This document shows positions 1 to 20,086 of a stretch of DNA of 64,000 nt, piece by piece (position 1 is the first letter of the stretch; the number at the start of each line of letters is the position of its first letter). Under the pieces are notes generated by a model. That model saw nothing but the letters and a program-made list of their open reading frames with translations. It ran no database searches and was not told the origin of the DNA. This DNA comes from a virus (lineage: Duplodnaviria > Caudoviricetes): the IMG/VR virus record IMGVR_UViG_3300037067_004891, positions 192,001 to 256,000 of that record; one strand, given 5' to 3'. The position numbers were made by a program, and so were the translations under genes.

Positions 1-281
1 TAATTGAACAAAAAGCAACTAAACGTGGTATCATTGTTAAATATGTCGACCCTTATCATACAAGTCAGACTTGTTCATGCTGTGGTATGATTGGTGAAAG
101 AAATGGTGCTGATTTTAAATGTATTAATGCTAAATGTGAAGAATTTAATAAAGATAAAGTAATTGATAGCGATTATAATGCTGCAATGAATATAGCTACA
201 TCTGTTGATTATTTAGATGATGCAAGCAAAGGAAAATATTACTTAAATAAAACCAAAAAGGTTTTAGAAGAAGTTCTTTGA
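1..281 (+). CDS. C-terminal part of a Cas12f-like (TnpB-family) RNA-guided nuclease, truncated by window start
   Basis: Frame from base 3 reads IEQKATKRGIIVKYVDPYHTSQTCSCCG...FKCINAKC...IDSDYNAAMNIA: Zn ribbon plus RuvC-III motif. A CRISPR array lies 217 bp downstream. Confidence 0.8.
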   Translation, partial: IEQKATKRGIIVKYVDPYHTSQTCSCCGMIGERNGADFKCINAKCEEFNKDKVIDSDYNAAMNIATSVDYLDDASKGKYYLNKTKKVLEEVL

Positions 282-284
282 AAT

Positions 285-395
285 AATATTGAGGTTTATT
301 GGGTTGGACGTAAGTCCAGTAAATGAACTGCTATATACACTCACTAAAATGTATGGTGAGCGCAGGGATTAAAACCAGATAGTGAGGTCAGGAAA
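285..395 (+). ncRNA. candidate tracrRNA/omegaRNA-like scaffold
   Basis: Hairpin TGGAC-GTAA-GTCCA; CTCACTA (340-346) pairs with TAGTGAG (380-386); TTGAGGTTTA (289-298) is 9/10 complementary to the repeat; lies between nuclease and array. Confidence 0.5.
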
Positions 396-498
396 TCAAA
401 AATTGGATTTTTTAGAGTTAAATTTAAAAGATTACATATTTTTTTTCCACTAATACACTCACTAAATACCTTTATTTCAGTGGTTTAAAATGGGATAA

Positions 499-864
499 GA
501 TGGGTTAAACCACAAATTGAGAGGTATGCCCAGCTATACATCGCTTAACTTGGTAGTAAGAGCAAGATGGGTTAAACCACAAATTGAGAGGTATGCCCAG
601 CTAAGGGACGAATACGATAAATCCACCTGTGATGGGTTAAACCACAAATTGAGAGGTATGCCCAGCTACCTTTTTTACATGCGTCAATTAAAGAAAGATG
701 GGTTAAACCACAAATTGAGAGGTATGCCCAGCTTATAATTCATCATCATCATTTTTTAATTAGATGGGTTAAACCACAAATTGAGAGGTATGCCCAGCAG
801 CCACAGTGAGGAATTTGTTTTTAACTATGATGGGTTAAACCACAAATTGAGAGGTATGCCCAGC
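499..864. CRISPR. CRISPR array 1: 6 identical 36-bp repeats GATGGGTTAAACCACAAATTGAGAGGTATGCCCAGC, 5 spacers
   Basis: Repeats start at 499, 566, 631, 697, 763, 829; unique spacers of 31, 29, 30, 30, 30 bp. Confidence 0.97.
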
Positions 865-896
865 AAGTCACATGGACTTATAACACTAAGGAAAAT

Positions 897-10969: not shown

Positions 10970-11758
10970 TTAAACGAAATTTATATTATCCAAATTTTTC
11001 AAATACCCCTTGGATTTGAGTTCTCTGATTACAATGGTAGCATATTTTTTATCTAAAAGTTTGAAAATATTAAATATGTTATCGGAAAAATAATAAGCCA
11101 GTTCAACAAATATTTCCGAATGTGTATATTTTATACTCAAATGATTCAACAATAGCCTATAATAATCATTAAATGATTGTTTGTTTGGTTTTCTTCGATT
11201 ATTTTTAAATTCTAAATCAGTATGTTTTTCTAAGATTTCAAAAACATCATTTGAAAGATTTTTTTGATTAACATATTCTTCATTGTTTCGAGATTCTTGT
11301 TCAAATAAACTACCAGAATCAATCTTATAATTTTTATTAATAGGATGATCAGATGTATCGTCATCTGCTGTTTCTATTTTATTTTCTTTGCCTTTAAATA
11401 TTGTATCTCTCTTTAAAGAATGTCTACCTTCTCTTTTATGTTTATTGTTATTAAAACGATAAAGAGCATTTAAATCGGAATGTTTATTAGTAGAAACGCT
11501 TTGATTTTCATTTTCTTTCACATTCTTATCACCATCATCATCTTCATCATCTTCGATTTCTTCTATATAAGATAAATCTTCTACATTTTCTTCAACATCA
11601 CTTATATCTTCAAATTGGTTATTACCGAGTGTAATTTCATTATACTCATCAGAATCTTCATTATCAATTTCTAAAAAATCTGGGGTTTCATAATCATCTT
11701 CTAATTTTAAATTTTTATTTTTATCGTTCATAAAATTAAATTTGTTTTTAAACAACAA
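10970..11758 (-). CDS. hypothetical acidic protein (start may be ~11730)
   Basis: 262-aa ORF in the replication cluster. Confidence 0.7.
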   Translation of the reverse strand: MLFKNKFNFMNDKNKNLKLEDDYETPDFLEIDNEDSDEYNEITLGNNQFEDISDVEENVEDLSYIEEIEDDEDDDGDKNVKENENQSVSTNKHSDLNALYRFNNNKHKREGRHSLKRDTIFKGKENKIETADDDTSDHPINKNYKIDSGSLFEQESRNNEEYVNQKNLSNDVFEILEKHTDLEFKNNRRKPNKQSFNDYYRLLLNHLSIKYTHSEIFVELAYYFSDNIFNIFKLLDKKYATIVIRELKSKGYLKNLDNINFV

Positions 11759-12833
11759 CTAATAAATCGTTTTCCATTGTTAAAGTTTCTGGTTTAAAGG
11801 TGAATTTAATCTGTTGCTCTTTACATTCACCATCACGGAGTTTTAAGTTTTTCAGACGATAAAGATTTTGTCTTTTCATTTCTGTCGTTCTGATAATAGC
11901 CCAAACAGTGTCGGCAGTTTCGACAATAGCTTTTGATTCTGGTACTGCATCCATTTTGATATCAGATGCTCCCCACACTGCCCTATCAGTTTGTGTAGCA
12001 GTAATAAATGTGGTGTTATGTTTTCCAGCCAAATACCTTAGACCTTCAGCTATATGTTTTCCTTTTTGATATAAATTATTTTTAAAATCTAAATTTTTTT
12101 CAAGACTCATAATATTAAGATAATCGACAATTACCATATCAACTTTAAATTGTTTGGTATCTTGAATTTTCATGATATAATTGTCAATATCTGTAACAGT
12201 GCAATCACTTGTATTAAACTTTTTTACAAAGAGTTCCCCTGATTTATTATTAAATAAATTAGTAGTTATCGTACTATTACGAAATGATTTTAATTTATTA
12301 ATCATATATTGGGTATCATTACTCTTTTCTTCATAAAGACTTGGTGGAATTTCAAGTAACATAGAACCCATTCTTTTGGTACACTTATATTCAGCCATTT
12401 CTAATGTCAAAACCAAAACATTTCGACCAGATTTAATAGTATTGGATGCTATATTATGAAGCCACATTGAATTATGAGATAATATACCACTTGTGTAATA
12501 TCTATGTTCGTCACCCTTTAAAGAGATATCAAACATATTAGATTTTATTTCAGTTTTATTATTATATAATATTTCACTTACATCGTTTATAGTGATTATT
12601 TTATCTCCTTTAACTAAATTTTCTACATATACTTCATTATAATTTTCATCAAATAAAATATGTTTATCAGCACATATTAATTCAAAACCATCTGTTGTTT
12701 TTAATTTCCACTCATCATATTCAATTGTCTTACCAATCTGGTCAATATCTGACCACCCACTATCAGTTTCTATTTGCCAATCTTCGACATCAAAAACTTC
12801 AATAAATTTTTTAAAAGTATTATCACTTAACAT
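11748..12833 (-). CDS. split-intein C-fragment (121 aa) plus C-terminal half of gp41/DnaB-like helicase
   Basis: CADKH block B; YYTSGILSHN|SMWL; then TLEM, VIVDYLNIM and TATQTDR helicase motifs. Confidence 0.9.
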   Translation of the reverse strand: MLSDNTFKKFIEVFDVEDWQIETDSGWSDIDQIGKTIEYDEWKLKTTDGFELICADKHILFDENYNEVYVENLVKGDKIITINDVSEILYNNKTEIKSNMFDISLKGDEHRYYTSGILSHNSMWLHNIASNTIKSGRNVLVLTLEMAEYKCTKRMGSMLLEIPPSLYEEKSNDTQYMINKLKSFRNSTITTNLFNNKSGELFVKKFNTSDCTVTDIDNYIMKIQDTKQFKVDMVIVDYLNIMSLEKNLDFKNNLYQKGKHIAEGLRYLAGKHNTTFITATQTDRAVWGASDIKMDAVPESKAIVETADTVWAIIRTTEMKRQNLYRLKNLKLRDGECKEQQIKFTFKPETLTMENDLLVVV

Positions 12834-12840
12834 ATATTAA

Positions 12841-12988
12841 TTATTGTTTATTTATAAAATATATACATTTTGTATATTTATCTTCTATATTTTGTTTATT
12901 CTTTTTCTCAAATTTTCGAAGAACATAATATGTGGTAACTTTTACTAACAGTCAAAAATTTAGTATCATTTCCACATATTTTACAAAC
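12841..12988 (-). pseudogene. eroded homing endonuclease remnant between the split-intein halves
   Basis: Reads VCKICGNDTKFLTVSKSYHILCSSKI*EKE*, then shifted ...EDKYTKCIYFINKQ*. Confidence 0.55.
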
Positions 12989-13724
12989 CAATTTTTATAT
13001 TTTTATTTTTATTTTTAATTAAATTGAAAAAATCACCAGTTTTCATTTCTATTACCTTCCCAGTTGTTTTATTTCGTAACTTAATGATACTCAGATAATT
13101 ATGACACTTCCCAATATTTGTCTCACCCATAATTACGTTTAATGTAGCGTTATCCCAACCGCCACCTAATACTGTATCAATAGCAGTCCAACCTGTTCTT
13201 ATCTTGTTTAAAGCAATATTTTGTTTATGTGATTCTGGATCATAAAAATCAGAACCTAAATCTTCATCTATATTATCTATAATTAGAAGATTCTTGTATA
13301 AATTTTCTAATTCAGATGATATACCAAGAACATTCGATATATTAACATCATCTAAACCTCTTATTAATTCAACACTTTTAAATACTCTTTCTTTAACAGA
13401 ATTGGAAATTTTCCAAGCTCTAAATCTACTTTCAACCCATTCTTTTTCAAGTGTATCTATTTGATGTTTTAAAATACTATTTAATGTTCCGTCAGTTATT
13501 TTATTTTCGGAATCGTTCATTTTAACCATCTCGATTATCTGTTCATTAGATGGAACTTTTTTCACTTTACTTGATAGATAATAATCATGTAATATTTTAT
13601 AAATAAACTGAAGTACATCAACTTTAAAAAATGATGTTTCAACGTATTGAAATTGTATAGGATTTACCAATATATAAGAAAAAAACGATAATTCCGTTTG
13701 TGGTGTTATTCTTTCTCCAGACAT
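12981..13724 (-). CDS. N-terminal half of gp41/DnaB-like helicase plus split-intein N-fragment (41 aa)
   Basis: IRTGWTAIDTVLGGG...GETNIGK|CHNYLSIIKLRNK...; Walker A is broken at K/S. Confidence 0.9.
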   Translation of the reverse strand: MSGERITPQTELSFFSYILVNPIQFQYVETSFFKVDVLQFIYKILHDYYLSSKVKKVPSNEQIIEMVKMNDSENKITDGTLNSILKHQIDTLEKEWVESRFRAWKISNSVKERVFKSVELIRGLDDVNISNVLGISSELENLYKNLLIIDNIDEDLGSDFYDPESHKQNIALNKIRTGWTAIDTVLGGGWDNATLNVIMGETNIGKCHNYLSIIKLRNKTTGKVIEMKTGDFFNLIKNKNKNIKIGL

Positions 13725-15283: not shown

Positions 15284-15682
15284 ATGAATTTTTATATTGT
15301 ATTCTGTAAAACCCGAAAGAAATTCGATAAGTATATAAAAGTAAATAAAATTAGAAATAAAGTTATAATTGATATAAAAGATCAATTAGAACAAGAAGAT
15401 ATTGATTATGAAGAATTTAAAGAATATTTTGATGTGATAATTTACACGAAAATTATACATGCTTTTAAGAAGGGAAAGGATGTATATTATATACCAAATT
15501 TCGAAAAAGATAATATCGATATTAAAGAAATATTTAAAGTATCCAATACTATTAAGAATTCTGATATTAATTACAACGTTTTATTTTTTCATGATGAATT
15601 TAAAAATGATATTCATATAAATAATTCAATAATAGAAAACATTGACAAATTTAATACATCGCAAATTATAAAAGATTATTAG
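15284..15682 (+). CDS. hypothetical protein
   Basis: 132-aa ORF preceded by a TATATA motif. Confidence 0.7.
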   Translation: MNFYIVFCKTRKKFDKYIKVNKIRNKVIIDIKDQLEQEDIDYEEFKEYFDVIIYTKIIHAFKKGKDVYYIPNFEKDNIDIKEIFKVSNTIKNSDINYNVLFFHDEFKNDIHINNSIIENIDKFNTSQIIKDY

Positions 15683-15717
15683 AACACATCTAATTTTCTT
15701 TAATTTGGATATGTTCA
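15681..15717. terminator. imperfect hairpin closing array 2 and ORF 15284
   Basis: GAACACATCTAATT...AATTTGGATATGTTC. Confidence 0.4.
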
Positions 15718-15741
15718 TTTAAAACAAATGTGGCAGGAATG

Positions 15742-16177
15742 ATTGTGTCAACCCTCATTTTTGTGTGTTCACTCACCAAAGAATATATTGGTGAAAAAAT
15801 GATTTGTGGTTGTGTCAACCCTCATTTTTGTGTGTTCACTCACCTATCGAATATTTCAACCACATCGGTTACATAAGTTGTGTCAACCCTCATTTTTGTG
15901 TGTTCACTCACCTTTTCCTCGCCATAAGGAAAGCAGATAATTAGTTGTGTCAACCCTCATTTTTGTGTGTTCACTCACCCAAAAATAAAAAAGATAGTAA
16001 AGTGGCTGGGTTGTGTCAACCCTCATTTTTGTGTGTTCACTCACCGTACAAAGTATGCAAAACCGCCCCATCCTGTTGTGTCAACCCTCATTTTTGTGTG
16101 TTCACTCACCTGAGTTGGGTGTAGTATATATAGTCGGGTCAGTTGTGTCAACCCTCATTTTTGTGTGTTCACTCACC
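15742..16177. CRISPR. CRISPR array 2: 7 x 36-bp repeat GTTGTGTCAACCCTCATTTTTGTGTGTTCACTCACC, 6 spacers
   Basis: Repeats at 15742 (first base A instead of G), 15809, 15877, 15944, 16010, 16075, 16142; spacers of 31, 32, 31, 30, 29, 31 bp. Confidence 0.97.
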
Positions 16178-16443
16178 ATACCACCAATTATTTCATTAGC
16201 ATTCAATATGTTAAGGTGATATTTCGTTTCTAAAACTTGATATATTTTGTTGAAGTTATAATATAAAACATATTTTTTCTTATCGTAATTAAAATAAACA
16301 ACATCATTTTTCTTTCCAACTAAAATATTAGAATTATACTTAGCAGTAACCCACTCAGTATCTTTAATTATTTGCCATAAAAAATACTTAGGACTTCTCG
16401 CTTCTTGTATCTTTCGAATTATATCTGATATATCTTCTTCCAT
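16102..16443 (-). CDS. small array-fused protein (C-terminus encoded by repeat plus spacer)
   Basis: 113-aa ORF with its own TATATTTG promoter motif; VSEHTKMRVDTT is the repeat. Confidence 0.75.
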   Translation of the reverse strand: MEEDISDIIRKIQEARSPKYFLWQIIKDTEWVTAKYNSNILVGKKNDVVYFNYDKKKYVLYYNFNKIYQVLETKYHLNILNANEIIGGMVSEHTKMRVDTTDPTIYTTPNSGE

Positions 16444-16462
16444 TTATTTAAAAATCTTATAA

Positions 16463-16470
16463 CAAATATA
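16463..16470 (-). promoter_or_regulatory. Bacteroidota-type -7 promoter element TATATTTG
   Basis: Matches TAnnTTTG, 20 bp upstream of the ATG at 16443. Confidence 0.55.
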
Positions 16471-16532: not shown

Positions 16533-18209
16533 ATGTATAACGAAATGAGTTTTTTATTCAGTAAAGAGTTAAAAGTTAATACCATTCGAACAAATGGCGA
16601 AGAATTAACTAATTTAAAACCATTATTTGAAAATATTAATACTGAAAAAAGCTATGTTGTTTACAAAGATAAGAATTTTTTTAAGGGTCAAAACGGTCAA
16701 ATAAGAAATTATATAAAAGAAAAAATATATGATGTTGATTCAACTGATACAAATCCATATATACAATTATTAAAAGACTCAGAATTTCAATCTGGTTCGA
16801 AACGTTTAAAACCAAGTTATTTTTCATATTTGAGAGATTTGGGTGTATTTCCAATAAACAGATTAATAATATTAAGGAGATTTCCAGAAGGTACAGTAGT
16901 GACAGATGATTTGAATCAAATAAAAACTTCTCCAATTTCGACAATGGTTGGTTGGGTAAAAGAAGATTTAGATATTTTTAATTTGTCATTCAATGAAGAA
17001 TGGGATACTCAGACAAAATATTTACATGAAATAATATTCGATATTCTTAAAAACGATTTCAAAGTTGGTGGAGCAGAAAAAGTTATTCCAGCTCCAGGCT
17101 GGTCTCAAGGATTATTATTTGGTTTTTTAAAAGCTATGGGTCTAACTGATAGTGATGCATATGATATACCATTTGGTGATCCCAATCTTTTACGAGAAGC
17201 AGCTTATAGGGATTATGATAAACAAGGATTAAAATCAACAATGAATATATCATTTGAGACTATATATGAACAAAAAATAATTGGTGATTTTGATCCAGCA
17301 ACTGCTATGTTAGATATTTTAAGAAATATTTTAAAAATGGGTACTTCAGATATGAGATATATATTTAAAGCCAATTCACCAATACTCAAACAACTAACGT
17401 CTGCTGTCAATGGTAAAGGTAATAATATAGATGAATGGGCTTTGCTTGTCAAAGAAATAGTAGATGCTTTTATCGAGGCAATTGGAAAAACATTCGAAAA
17501 TATATCAGGTAAAAAATTAGATGATGCTGCAAATGATTTTGAAAATTTGTCCAATGAACAAAAATCTGAAGATACAAGATTGATTGAAATTAATAATGAA
17601 CTAAAAATATTGGATAAAAAACCGAGACCAGATGGTTGGAAAGCGAGAAAAAAAGAATTAGAAACAGAAAAAAAATCATTAGATAAATCTGTGGAAGCAA
17701 AACAAGGTCAAGAAAAAGCAAAACAAAATGAATTAGAAAACAATCAAAATATACAAAATGCAGCAGCAGTAAACGCAAGTATTGGAACATTAAAAAACAT
17801 ATCAGATGATAGTAAAACATCTGATTTTTTACGAACAATAGTAGCTTCAACTTTTGCCAAACACAGATGGCCTATTCGTGGTTCTATTGGAGCAATGACT
17901 GGACAACCAACAACACCTTGGCATATAACAATTGGAAATCCTTGGTCACCAATTGTTTCAGCAGGTAATATGATAGTTGATAAAATTGATTTATCTGCCA
18001 AGGGAGAAATGGGTTTTAATGATATGCCAATATTTTTAAATGCTACTGTTAATTTACGATTCGGAAGAAATATGGGAGCGCAGGAAATTGAACGAATTTT
18101 TAACAATGGATATCAAAGAATATATAACAAACCACAAAATGATCAAAGTAGAACTGATAAAACAAAACCAAAAGATAATATAACAAAACCGCCAACATAT
18201 AACAATTAA
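16533..18209 (+). CDS. putative baseplate/tail structural protein
   Basis: 558 aa, first gene of the baseplate cluster; WHITIGNP..PI...GNM motif. Confidence 0.55.
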   Translation: MYNEMSFLFSKELKVNTIRTNGEELTNLKPLFENINTEKSYVVYKDKNFFKGQNGQIRNYIKEKIYDVDSTDTNPYIQLLKDSEFQSGSKRLKPSYFSYLRDLGVFPINRLIILRRFPEGTVVTDDLNQIKTSPISTMVGWVKEDLDIFNLSFNEEWDTQTKYLHEIIFDILKNDFKVGGAEKVIPAPGWSQGLLFGFLKAMGLTDSDAYDIPFGDPNLLREAAYRDYDKQGLKSTMNISFETIYEQKIIGDFDPATAMLDILRNILKMGTSDMRYIFKANSPILKQLTSAVNGKGNNIDEWALLVKEIVDAFIEAIGKTFENISGKKLDDAANDFENLSNEQKSEDTRLIEINNELKILDKKPRPDGWKARKKELETEKKSLDKSVEAKQGQEKAKQNELENNQNIQNAAAVNASIGTLKNISDDSKTSDFLRTIVASTFAKHRWPIRGSIGAMTGQPTTPWHITIGNPWSPIVSAGNMIVDKIDLSAKGEMGFNDMPIFLNATVNLRFGRNMGAQEIERIFNNGYQRIYNKPQNDQSRTDKTKPKDNITKPPTYNN

Positions 18210-18228
18210 AAAATAAAATTATTATAAA

Positions 18229-18696
18229 ATGAAAATTTTTTCATTTAATAAGTTAAAAAGAGATACGAAAGTTAAAGGTGCGCCTTTTGATTTATTTATA
18301 AGTACTGTAACTGATAAAGATATAAATAATATAAAATTATATTTATATATAGTACCACCAGAAAATGTTGGTAGAATAGATAAAATATCATTAGAACTTT
18401 ACGGTTCGATAGATTATTCAGACGAATTAATGAAGATAAATAATATACTAAATTCTTTTTCAATAAACGAAAAAGATGAAATATTATATCCCGAACTCGA
18501 AAATATATCAATTATACATTTACCAATTGAAAATGAAATTGATACTGTTTCTAATATCAATAATCCTAAAAATACAAGAAAAGATACGAATAGAACAAAT
18601 TCAAATCAATCCGTTGTAGTAAAGGAAAAGGGTGCTAAACAGGTAGAATGGAATAAAAATAATAAAACAATTTCAATAACAAATATAATACCTTAA
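18229..18696 (+). CDS. baseplate wedge protein, gp53-like (LysM-type)
   Basis: GRIDKISLELYGSIDYSDELMKINNI..SFSI. Confidence 0.7.
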   Translation: MKIFSFNKLKRDTKVKGAPFDLFISTVTDKDINNIKLYLYIVPPENVGRIDKISLELYGSIDYSDELMKINNILNSFSINEKDEILYPELENISIIHLPIENEIDTVSNINNPKNTRKDTNRTNSNQSVVVKEKGAKQVEWNKNNKTISITNIIP

Positions 18697-18697
18697 T

Positions 18698-20086
18698 ATG
18701 ATAACCAGAATAGTGAAACCTTCTATAGTATTACAGAAAATAGACATTCAGTATAATGACAACGTATCAGATGATAATGCCAATGATTTCATTTCAAAAG
18801 TTGGGTTTTATCCATTTGTTATTATAAATGGATTAATATTAGAATATCAATATTTTGTGAAATTTGTTTTAAGAAATGATCAATTTCTCCCAAAATTAGA
18901 AATTTCATTTAGAGATAAAAGTAATAAAATAACAGATGAATTATTTCCATTAGACGATGCAATTATTTCCATTTTTATAAAATCACCATCTGAAATTTTA
19001 ATGCCAGTTAGAATGGATTTTAAAGTGACTGTATTTAATCCAGTAAAAAACGAAGTAAATAATGAAGATGTTGTTTATACATTGGAAGGTATTTTAAATG
19101 TAAATGGTTTATATCATTCACCATACTGGGCTAAAAATAATACATCTTTTAATGTTTTAAAGGAACTTGCTAATGAAATAGGGCTTGGATTTGCTACTAA
19201 TATACAAAACACAGATGATAAAATGATTTGGATAAATCCAAGTGATATAAATTTAGATTTCATAAAAGCTACAACAATGGTTTCATACAAAGATGATGAA
19301 TCTTTTCTATGGTCATATGTAGATTTTTATTATAATTTAAATTATATTGATATAGAAACTCAATTTGGTGATACGACTGAGGGTTTAGAAGGTATAAATT
19401 CAAATAAATACATAATGGATGATGCTAATAATATAACGCCACTATATTTAACAAATCACCCAGATTCATATGGTTCTTCATTATTTATATCAAAATATAA
19501 CATTGATAATTCATCAACTAAAATAAACCTTGATATTGGATATAACTTCTTTATTAAATATTATGACACAATTGAAAAAAATTTAGCTGGATTTGTATTA
19601 GATACAATTTCTAATATTGGTGATAATGGTGATATCGTATTAAAATCGAATAATGAAAATGGTGGTAATTCTGATTCATTGTATCAACAAAATGTAACAA
19701 ATGATTTTTGTGGTAGAATTGATATAGATAATATGCACAAAAATTTTTATTATGCTTCCGTTCAGAATGAAAGAAATATGAAATATTTTCAAAAAATTAA
19801 AATGAAAGTTGTATTATCAACTCCAAATTTCAATTTAACAAGATTTCAAATGATTCAAGTTAAATTATATAAAATACAAGAATTAGATAATAAAACAAGA
19901 ACAACACCGCCAGAAAATAGAGATAAGTTAGCAAATAAAAATATATATGAAGATAAATTGAATAAAAGACTATCTGGAAATTGGATGATATCTGGAATTA
20001 ATTACACATTTAGCTCAGATAGTGGGTGGCAACAAGAAATTAATTTAGTTCGCAGAGAACTTGGGGATAGTCAAATAAAAACTTAA
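18698..20086 (+). CDS. putative baseplate hub protein
   Basis: Sits between gp53-like and gp5-like genes; C-terminal LSGNWMISGINYTF...QEINLVRRE. Confidence 0.55.
   Translation: MITRIVKPSIVLQKIDIQYNDNVSDDNANDFISKVGFYPFVIINGLILEYQYFVKFVLRNDQFLPKLEISFRDKSNKITDELFPLDDAIISIFIKSPSEILMPVRMDFKVTVFNPVKNEVNNEDVVYTLEGILNVNGLYHSPYWAKNNTSFNVLKELANEIGLGFATNIQNTDDKMIWINPSDINLDFIKATTMVSYKDDESFLWSYVDFYYNLNYIDIETQFGDTTEGLEGINSNKYIMDDANNITPLYLTNHPDSYGSSLFISKYNIDNSSTKINLDIGYNFFIKYYDTIEKNLAGFVLDTISNIGDNGDIVLKSNNENGGNSDSLYQQNVTNDFCGRIDIDNMHKNFYYASVQNERNMKYFQKIKMKVVLSTPNFNLTRFQMIQVKLYKIQELDNKTRTTPPENRDKLANKNIYEDKLNKRLSGNWMISGINYTFSSDSGWQQEINLVRRELGDSQIKT

Follow-up and report, generated by a model that had tools for sequence, protein, structure and literature searches.

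A CRISPR array without neighbouring cas genes whose first repeat is the 3′ end of a small protein gene, in a 421-kb phage genome and its relatives

The array and the in-frame gene

We examined a CRISPR array that lies in a 64,000-nt stretch of phage DNA, referred to here as the window, which corresponds to bases 192001–256000 of a 421,673-bp IMG/VR virus (IMGVR_UViG_3300037067_004891, 25.7% G+C). At positions 15742–16177, a 36-nt repeat occurs seven times (15742–15777, 15809–15844, 15877–15912, 15944–15979, 16010–16045, 16075–16110 and 16142–16177) with a start-to-start distance of 65–68 nt, and shuffled sequence gave 0 matches to it. The six spacers, which measure 31, 29, 30, 31, 32 and 31 nt counted from the gene, are all different. 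Six of the seven repeats are identical, and only the distal copy at 15742 differs, as a first-pass annotation made from the letters of the window had noted; the difference is a single base. The locus is a genuine CRISPR array, with at least three near-identical and regularly placed repeats, unique spacers of similar length, and a degenerate terminal repeat opposite to the insertion end. On the other hand, it has no non-coding AT-rich leader, the 266 bases upstream being a protein-coding gene in frame with the repeat, and no cas gene lies within ~10 kb.

The gene is a minus-strand open reading frame (ORF) of 113 amino acids (aa), 16443–16102, which reads ...EIIGGM, continues as VSEHTKMRVDTT through repeat 1 and as DPTIYTTPNS through spacer 1, and terminates at a TGA within repeat 2. 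The array and its in-frame ORF, as first annotated, are thus confirmed by the repeat coordinates and the translation. The features of the locus are the following:

16463–16470, minus strand: TATATTTG, a promoter-like motif of the Bacteroidota −7 type, 20 nt upstream of the ATG
16178–16443, minus strand: unique part of the small gene (codons 1–88 and the first two bases of codon 89), in place of a CRISPR leader
16142–16177, minus strand: repeat 1, with the third base of codon 89 and the codons up to 101; encodes (M)VSEHTKMRVDTT, the end of helix 79–94 and the start of the last strand
16111–16141, minus strand: spacer 1 (31 nt), by its position the newest; translated as the tail DPTIYTTPNS; no target found in the searches given below
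16075–16110, minus strand: repeat 2, which provides the stop (GGT GAG TGA, stop at 16102–16104)
15778–16074, minus strand: spacers 2–6 (29, 30, 31, 32 and 31 nt), interleaved with repeats 3–6
15742–15777, minus strand: repeat 7, the distal terminal repeat; its sole base change is the last base, C>T on the ORF strand
15662–15726, minus strand: weak hairpins, a possible terminator, between the array and the convergent 132-aa gene
15284–15682, plus strand: convergent 132-aa gene without an assigned function, which bounds the cassette and keeps its position in relatives

The standard genetic code fits this DNA, as code 11 covers 86% in ORFs and codes 4 and 15 add little; an alternative code was rejected on this fit and on the absence of a suppressor tRNA, and the TGA stop is therefore taken as real. 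The gene had been credited with a TAnnTTTG promoter of its own. The motif is indeed present before the ATG, but the window shows no enrichment of TAnnTTTG (105 occurrences against 134 expected), so that the motif alone proves nothing. The hairpin said to close the distal side was likewise found, although it is weak (−11.6 kcal/mol, z −1.74), with 10 of 200 shuffles folding equally well and no T-run. The region matched no Rfam family. On the plus strand, at 15808–15820 and 16008–16022, the start of the repeat gives a short hairpin, GGTTG-TGT-CAACC, with a T-run after it, and it also holds CATTTTTG, which is one base off the TAnnTTTG promoter motif; judged from sequence alone, antisense transcription of the array is conceivable.

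The cassette is flanked on one side by the 132-aa gene, a UvsX-like recombinase and a DnaB-like fragment, and on the other by a baseplate-side cluster; this inventory agreed with the earlier statement that a baseplate cluster, and no recognisable cas gene, is adjacent. The DnaB-like helicase (window 11748–13724) is split into ORFs of 247 and 361 aa, while it is a single 462-aa ORF (66046–67434) in G001, a complete 640-kb relative with direct terminal repeats. An insertion, the remnant of an intein or a problem of assembly could account for the split.

Cassette copies, the protein family and its coding repeat

Six arrays with repeats of this family, and one solitary degenerate repeat, are present in the genome. 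A tblastn search with residues 1–89 placed a paralog of the small gene before all six arrays and before the solitary repeat, giving seven full copies with 58–88% aa identity, and each alignment stops exactly at the first repeat, in the same frame. Some of the paralogs show no TAnnTTTG-type motif and abut an upstream gene. A further copy is truncated: at genome positions 190603–190760, upstream of the window, 44 codons are joined to the 3′ half of the cassette repeat, among a 432-aa TnpB-like ORF, an HNH-like 185-aa ORF and a Cas12f-like gene, and this cassette looks disrupted by mobile elements. G001 has twelve full copies, eleven of which end on a repeat (one of them frameshifted) and one of which is array-less; nine carry at least one spacer, and ~2 kb from the cas9 of G001 there is a fragment of a thirteenth. 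Cassettes were also present in a 676-kb relative and in contigs that measure 98, 78 and 20 kb (IMG/VR or ENA), and both solitary-repeat and truncated forms exist.

Purifying selection acts on the gene. In pairwise comparisons of the seven paralogs over the 88 codons before the repeat, Nei-Gojobori dN/dS ranged from 0.16 to 0.41 with dS up to 1.1, the most divergent pair showed a synonymous excess (Fisher p = 3e-5), and one paralog carries an in-frame insertion of 4 codons. Selection and the in-frame indel together indicate that the ORF is a real protein gene and not merely conserved leader DNA. That it is an untranslated DNA or RNA leader, left open by chance, would suit those copies without a recognisable promoter of their own; it is nonetheless highly improbable, as it fits neither dN/dS values well below 1 at such dS, nor indels that keep the frame, nor members that can be aligned down to ~20% identity, nor a confidently predicted compact fold (pLDDT 91, where pLDDT is the predicted local distance difference test) that draws on co-variation among 116 sequences.

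Searched with a profile, 1.84 billion cluster representatives yielded 256 proteins at E ≤ 1e-3. Members only 22–40% identical to the query keep the repeat-coded peptide, and 10 residues later a second copy of it follows, in very different sequences (VEEHYKLEVNTT, MWETLKLK, VYETLKLDAETT and IEDTFKIKGVTP are examples). A 22-aa period, equal to 36 + 30 nt, was seen in 22 of 154 representatives, roughly as expected from first spacers that happen to be in phase and free of stops. At the DNA level, three distant members have diverged 36-nt repeats of their own, spacers of 29–32 nt, degenerate distal repeats and the same codon phase. All ten members that were looked up are metagenomic, on contigs of <4 kb. 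The small-protein profile found no match in 401 sampled Bacteroidota genomes, and tblastn of the family found none among GenBank phages. When the long homologs were compared with Pfam, a SET domain was detected in one of them and nothing else. The fusion is found in the same phase throughout a large, divergent and phage-only family. Homologs that end before the repeat would have spoken for chance insertion of an array into a gene; instead, 7/7 copies in this genome, 11/12 in G001 and the distant homologs enter repeat-spacer-repeat in phase, with variable tails.

The repeat itself varies like coding sequence. Across the columns of 14 repeat variants, entropy falls from 0.77 at third codon positions to 0.64 at first and 0.46 at second positions, and the variants show synonymous swaps (GAA/GAG, CAC/CAT, GTT/GTG/GTA and TTG/CTG). 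The pN/pS of the 11 repeat codons is 0.3–0.4 within the megaphage clade, similar to that of the remainder of the gene, and saturates at deeper divergence. In a 116-sequence alignment, residues 90–101 are conserved like the core (occupancy 1.00, entropy 2.41), while the spacer-coded tail has an occupancy of 0.34 and the highest entropy. AlphaFold, given the same sequences, returned a model with a pLDDT of 91.4 and a predicted template modelling score (pTM) of 0.80, consisting of two helices, a four-stranded sheet, two more helices and a short final strand. Helix 79–94 spans the gene-repeat junction, residues 91–100 reach a pLDDT of 97, and the tail falls to 43; a model built on a shallower alignment agrees. 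The 12 repeat-coded residues are therefore both ordered and conserved. The first-pass annotation had predicted that a helix continues into the repeat-encoded peptide, which is borne out in both models, and that the segment is selected as repeat and as protein at once, for which dN/dS, the codon-position pattern and the structure model now speak. Its suggestion that the tails diversify the protein is unlikely, as they are disordered, unconserved and of arbitrary length.

The small protein matched nothing in Pfam, PHROG, PADLOC or NCBIfam, and no solved structure in the PDB was significantly similar (best Foldseek E 0.17, best VIA Z 4.1–4.6); matches in BFVD and the ESM Atlas were uncharacterised viral proteins only. 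The recurrence of the gene and its array, seven times in this genome and in hundreds of relatives from metagenomes, points to a CRISPR-linked protein family that had not been described before.

The cassettes are not fixed in place. At the same site in G001 and in a third phage (SRR20217207 contig), the 132-aa neighbour is present and the ortholog of the small gene is array-less, ending in a diverged single 'repeat'. Moreover, the window copy is 82–88% identical to two paralogs in its own genome and only 52% identical to its syntenic G001 ortholog. The array-less orthologs and these identities indicate that cassettes have been lost, gained or converted between loci.

Such orthologs raise the question whether the gene came first and the arrays are a by-product, that is, whether the end of the protein merely resembles a repeat at which off-target integration by the host seeds functionless 'neo-CRISPR' arrays. 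Off-target integration by Cas1-Cas2 that creates new arrays has been described, which counts for this explanation, as do the homologous C-terminus kept by the array-less syntenic orthologs, the coding-like evolution of the repeat, the presence of self-derived spacers and the lack of a detected effector (see below). However, the junction has an identical codon phase in members 22–40% identical, at least one spacer is present in 17 of the 19 full copies of the two genomes, and arrays attain 8 or more repeats. The persistence of phase, spacers and array length is more readily read as an association that is ancestral and has been maintained than as a series of sporadic accidents, and we give the by-product explanation a slim chance.

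Array growth, spacers and candidate machinery

In every array whose DNA was examined, the gene-proximal repeats are clean and the distal ones are degenerate. In two arrays the proximal run has the newer coding variant VIEH while the distal repeat is of the older VSEH type; since the proximal run carries the coding variant, new repeats are copies of the coding repeat. Such polarity is what insertion at the leader end usually leaves behind. The arrays grow on the side of the gene, with the coding repeat as the copied unit, and the gene does occupy the leader position, as had been proposed. With insertion at the leader end, each event would replace only the tail. Spacers in the G001 cassettes are exactly 30 nt in 19 of 21 cases, like those of its Cas9 array, and 28–32 nt in the Cas9-less genome studied here. 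A 'frame gate', meaning selection against first spacers of 30 nt, was considered and is unsupported, as all nine listed G001 first spacers are 30 nt.

None of the six window-array spacers matched this genome, G001 or INPHARED; two of them were scanned in IMG/VR and one in JGI metagenomes, again without a match. Across all cassettes, 3 of 26 spacers in this genome and 1 of 21 in G001 match genes of their own phage perfectly (full-length in this genome), or 4/47 overall, and two more G001 spacers match imperfectly. In addition, spacer 4 of a cassette array in the related 98-kb contig is a perfect 31-nt match to window 11609–11639, where it reads in mRNA sense within a 262-aa minus-strand ORF and is followed on the 3′ side by GATAT instead of NAAAA. 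Self matches numbered 0/10 in the Cas9 array and 0/5 in the Cas12f array that these phages also carry. In ORF direction, each of the five perfect matches, whether self or cross, is mRNA-sense, and both antisense matches are imperfect; with five cases, this bias is only suggestive. The 3′ flank is NAAA(A) at 5–6 of 7 protospacers, where 0.027 per site is expected for NAAAA, so that an A-rich flank lies on the 3′ side in ORF orientation, which is leader-distal; with transcription from the leader, this geometry resembles type II-A. Mean spacer G+C is ~0.36 against 0.26 for the genome, and many spacers therefore probably derive from other DNA. The tolerated perfect self matches are evidence against an effector that cuts DNA.

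No match to a Cas1 profile was found in four phage records, and this genome has no Cas9 by TIGR01865 or by tblastn with the G001 Cas9; the 'Cas9' that the software used in PMC12607003 predicted for this genome was not reproduced by either search. A trans-activating CRISPR RNA (tracrRNA) was sought by ungapped and half-repeat pairing scans and by duplex folding against the ORF and array flanks, which yielded only AT-rich noise or extra degenerate terminal repeats. The arrays share with type II systems an unstructured 36-nt repeat (it folds no better than shuffles), spacers of ~30 nt (28–32) and an A-rich motif 3′ of the protospacer; in this genome, however, neither Cas9 nor a matching tracrRNA anti-repeat accompanies them. 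Eight large ORFs had no PADLOC match and no Cas-related Pfam match, and three of them had no sequence match in the PDB. The family-consensus repeat pattern was absent from the 401 sampled Bacteroidota genomes. As no cas1, effector or anti-repeat was found in the phages, adaptation and interference must come from the host or from unrecognised proteins.

A Cas12f/TnpB-like gene does lie 15 kb from the cassette array, with its own array of a different repeat. Window 1–865 (genome 191010–192865) contains the C-terminal part of this 423-aa ORF and then a ~217-nt intergenic stretch, followed by an array in which another 36-nt repeat occurs six times; none of its five spacers, of 29–31 nt, matches the phage itself. 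Elsewhere in the genome, a 966-aa protein (16587–19484) has PKD domains and a CHU_C type IX secretion signal; CHU_C agrees with the indicated Bacteroidota host. An 850-aa protein (271344–273893) joins GNAT and ART-PolyVal to a poly(A) polymerase head domain.

The G001 genome has a complete type II-C-like locus (283321–289566), in which a tracrRNA that has terminator-like hairpins lies downstream of a 1138-aa Cas9 and an array of 11 repeats lies upstream of it, whose spacers are 30 nt and whose degenerate repeat is distal to cas9; cas1 and cas2 are missing from G001. Like the cassettes, this locus resides in a phage of the same clade and combines 36-nt repeats with 30-nt spacers. Its repeat has 21 of 36 bases in common with the cassette repeat in the same orientation (composition-shuffle p ~5e-4), which hints at common descent. 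However, the anti-repeat of its tracrRNA, which reaches −30 kcal/mol when paired with the repeat of that locus, does no better with the cassette repeat than with shuffles. Unlike the cassettes, the II-C locus has a non-coding leader, lacks spacers that match the phage itself, and grows with the opposite polarity when judged by repeat orientation.

The strand bias raises the possibility that the CRISPR RNAs (crRNAs) are loaded into an RNA-targeting host effector, VI-B-like or III-like, so that self spacers persist only if they are not complementary to mRNA and the useful ones target transcripts of competitors or of the host. A parallel is Flavobacterium columnare, whose cas1-less type VI-B array uses the type II-C Cas1 in trans, is transcribed from its leader, and has self spacers depleted for mRNA complementarity (bioRxiv 10.1101/2020.02.20.957498). 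Both it and the cassette grow without adaptation genes of their own, with a carried-over PAM-like motif (PAM, protospacer adjacent motif) and a self-spacer bias, and the likely host phylum of the cassette phages is Bacteroidota as well. The two differ in that the VI-B arrays stand beside cas13b on the host chromosome and have non-coding leaders, while the cassette is phage-borne and its leader is coding; a figure legend in the same study mentions an ORF in the leaders and describes no fusion.

Five of five mRNA-sense perfect matches, the depletion measured in F. columnare, the 36-nt repeat ending in ...ACAAC with ~30-nt spacers, and a Bacteroidota host indicated by the CHU_C protein and by the published clade assignment are all in line with such an effector. 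Nevertheless, 5/5 corresponds to p ~0.06 (two-sided), and in two phage genomes no large ORF has a pair of R-x4-H (HEPN-like) motifs placed towards its two ends. The repeat RNA, with ends GGUG...CAAC where type VI-B repeats have paired GUUG...CAAC ends and an internal stem, has no stable fold; a gapped shuffle alignment to the PspCas13b repeat gave a similar score and a low p in both orientations and so did not discriminate between them. The A-rich flank, moreover, faces away from the leader in the cassette, whereas the PAM side faces the leader in F. columnare VI-B. An RNA-targeting host effector consequently has a small chance of being the answer.

A counter-defence role is also conceivable, in which the cassettes would mimic host CRISPR loci as decoys: the numerous leader-repeat junctions that the phage brings into each infected cell would act as an adaptation sink for the host integrase, the repeats would sequester host effectors in the manner of RNA anti-CRISPRs, and the protein would be an anti-CRISPR or a decoy helper. 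In its favour, each genome has 7–12 copies, the phages encode no cas genes that belong to these arrays, some copies are truncated or have a solitary repeat, and the 4/47 perfect self spacers, against 0/10 and 0/5 in Cas9 and Cas12f arrays, are as expected if prespacers come from the DNA that an infected cell contains most of. Repeat mimicry by phages is, furthermore, an established strategy (PMC10651486), and related systems are RNA anti-CRISPRs (Racrs), which are solitary repeat units, and phage crRNA-like regulatory RNAs (PMC10651486; bioRxiv 10.1101/2024.10.29.618823). Racrs are, like the cassette, phage-borne repeats without cas genes. In contrast to the cassette, they copy the host repeat and are non-coding; for the cassette no host repeat was found, spacers are still acquired, and the repeat lies within a protein-constrained ORF. 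A mimic should match its host, yet no searched bacterial genome has a similar repeat, and the repeat drifts with the synonymous sites of the protein rather than being pinned to a host repeat. A pure sink would also leave the mRNA-sense bias of the self matches unexplained. We therefore regard a decoy as an unlikely explanation, of minor weight.

The cassette among known systems and its favoured interpretation

Orphan or mini arrays have been reported in phages, huge ones among them. The arrays of this genome were published as orphan arrays in PMC12607003, where a landfill jumbo phage is listed with six CRISPR arrays, two of them called orphan, and with cas annotations labelled speculative. The same source places landfill megaphages of >600 kb in the Mahaphage clade and predicts Bacteroidetes hosts for them; these are the kind of relative used here. 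Published orphan arrays are, like ours, cas-less and several per genome, with effectors presumed to be encoded elsewhere. In the cassettes, by contrast, the leader is a protein gene, the first repeat is coding, and one protein family recurs across many phages. A gene fused to the arrays is mentioned neither in PMC12607003 nor in the other papers that could be searched. Since spacers in PMC12607003 were compared only with array-less viruses, self matches could not have come to light there.

In TnpB and IscB systems, the scaffold of the guide omega-RNA begins inside the coding sequence of the upstream gene, whose product is the nuclease that uses the RNA. One DNA stretch serves protein and RNA there as it does in the cassette. 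On the other hand, the cassette protein, of ~100 aa, shows no features of a nuclease, and the RNA in this case is a CRISPR array with several spacers.

We favour the reading in which the window holds one copy of a conserved phage cassette, where a small gene replaces the leader and its 3′ end is the first repeat; as a full explanation, with the mechanism that follows, we consider it about evenly balanced between right and wrong. Transcription from the gene start would give a single RNA that is mRNA and pre-crRNA at once. Spacers would be inserted by an integrase supplied in trans by the host, to which it is assigned because the phages have no cas1. The geometry of insertion would resemble type II-A, given the 36-nt repeat, the ~30-nt spacers and the leader-distal A-rich motif 3′ of the protospacer, and each insertion would swap the disordered tail only. 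The protein would be an accessory factor dedicated to the array, acting preferentially on its own cassette, and most likely would bind the gene-repeat junction or the repeat RNA and promote adaptation or crRNA output. The crRNAs would then be used by an effector that is not encoded beside the array.

Several results weigh against this reading. No adaptation or interference machinery, and no cas1, is tied to these arrays; Cas9 occurs in G001 only, with a tracrRNA that does not pair with the cassette repeat; and no anti-repeat to that repeat was found in this 421-kb genome or in the complete 640-kb G001. No genome among 185,579 species carries the repeat, as two scans gave nothing or single chance matches. 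The small protein showed no nucleic-acid-binding signature and no known fold, and since the homologous C-terminus is retained in array-less orthologs, the protein may be able to act in the absence of an array. None of the six spacers of the window array has a known target, and tolerance of perfect self-matching spacers is odd for a working DNA-targeting system.

On the most far-reaching interpretation, which we hold possible but doubtful, the cassettes would represent a new class of CRISPR-associated genes, in which the coding sequence doubles as leader and first repeat, the repeat evolves under constraint from the protein, the mRNA is the pre-crRNA, and processing or insertion at repeat 1 directly alters protein output, making a self-contained adaptive module without cas genes. 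Such a module could sense or regulate CRISPR activity during infection with enzymes borrowed from the host. Together with their strand bias, the tolerated self spacers hint at an effector other than a DNA-cutting one, and the small, confidently modelled protein without a known fold would be an easy target for biochemistry. CRISPR repeats and leaders have been treated as non-coding and as shaped by Cas proteins; here a protein fold shapes the repeat, and a gene takes the place of the leader, throughout a large family confined to phages. The family may thus offer a handle on how cas-less phage arrays fill and are used, on how new arrays and repeats originate, and on whether phages exploit or sabotage host adaptation.

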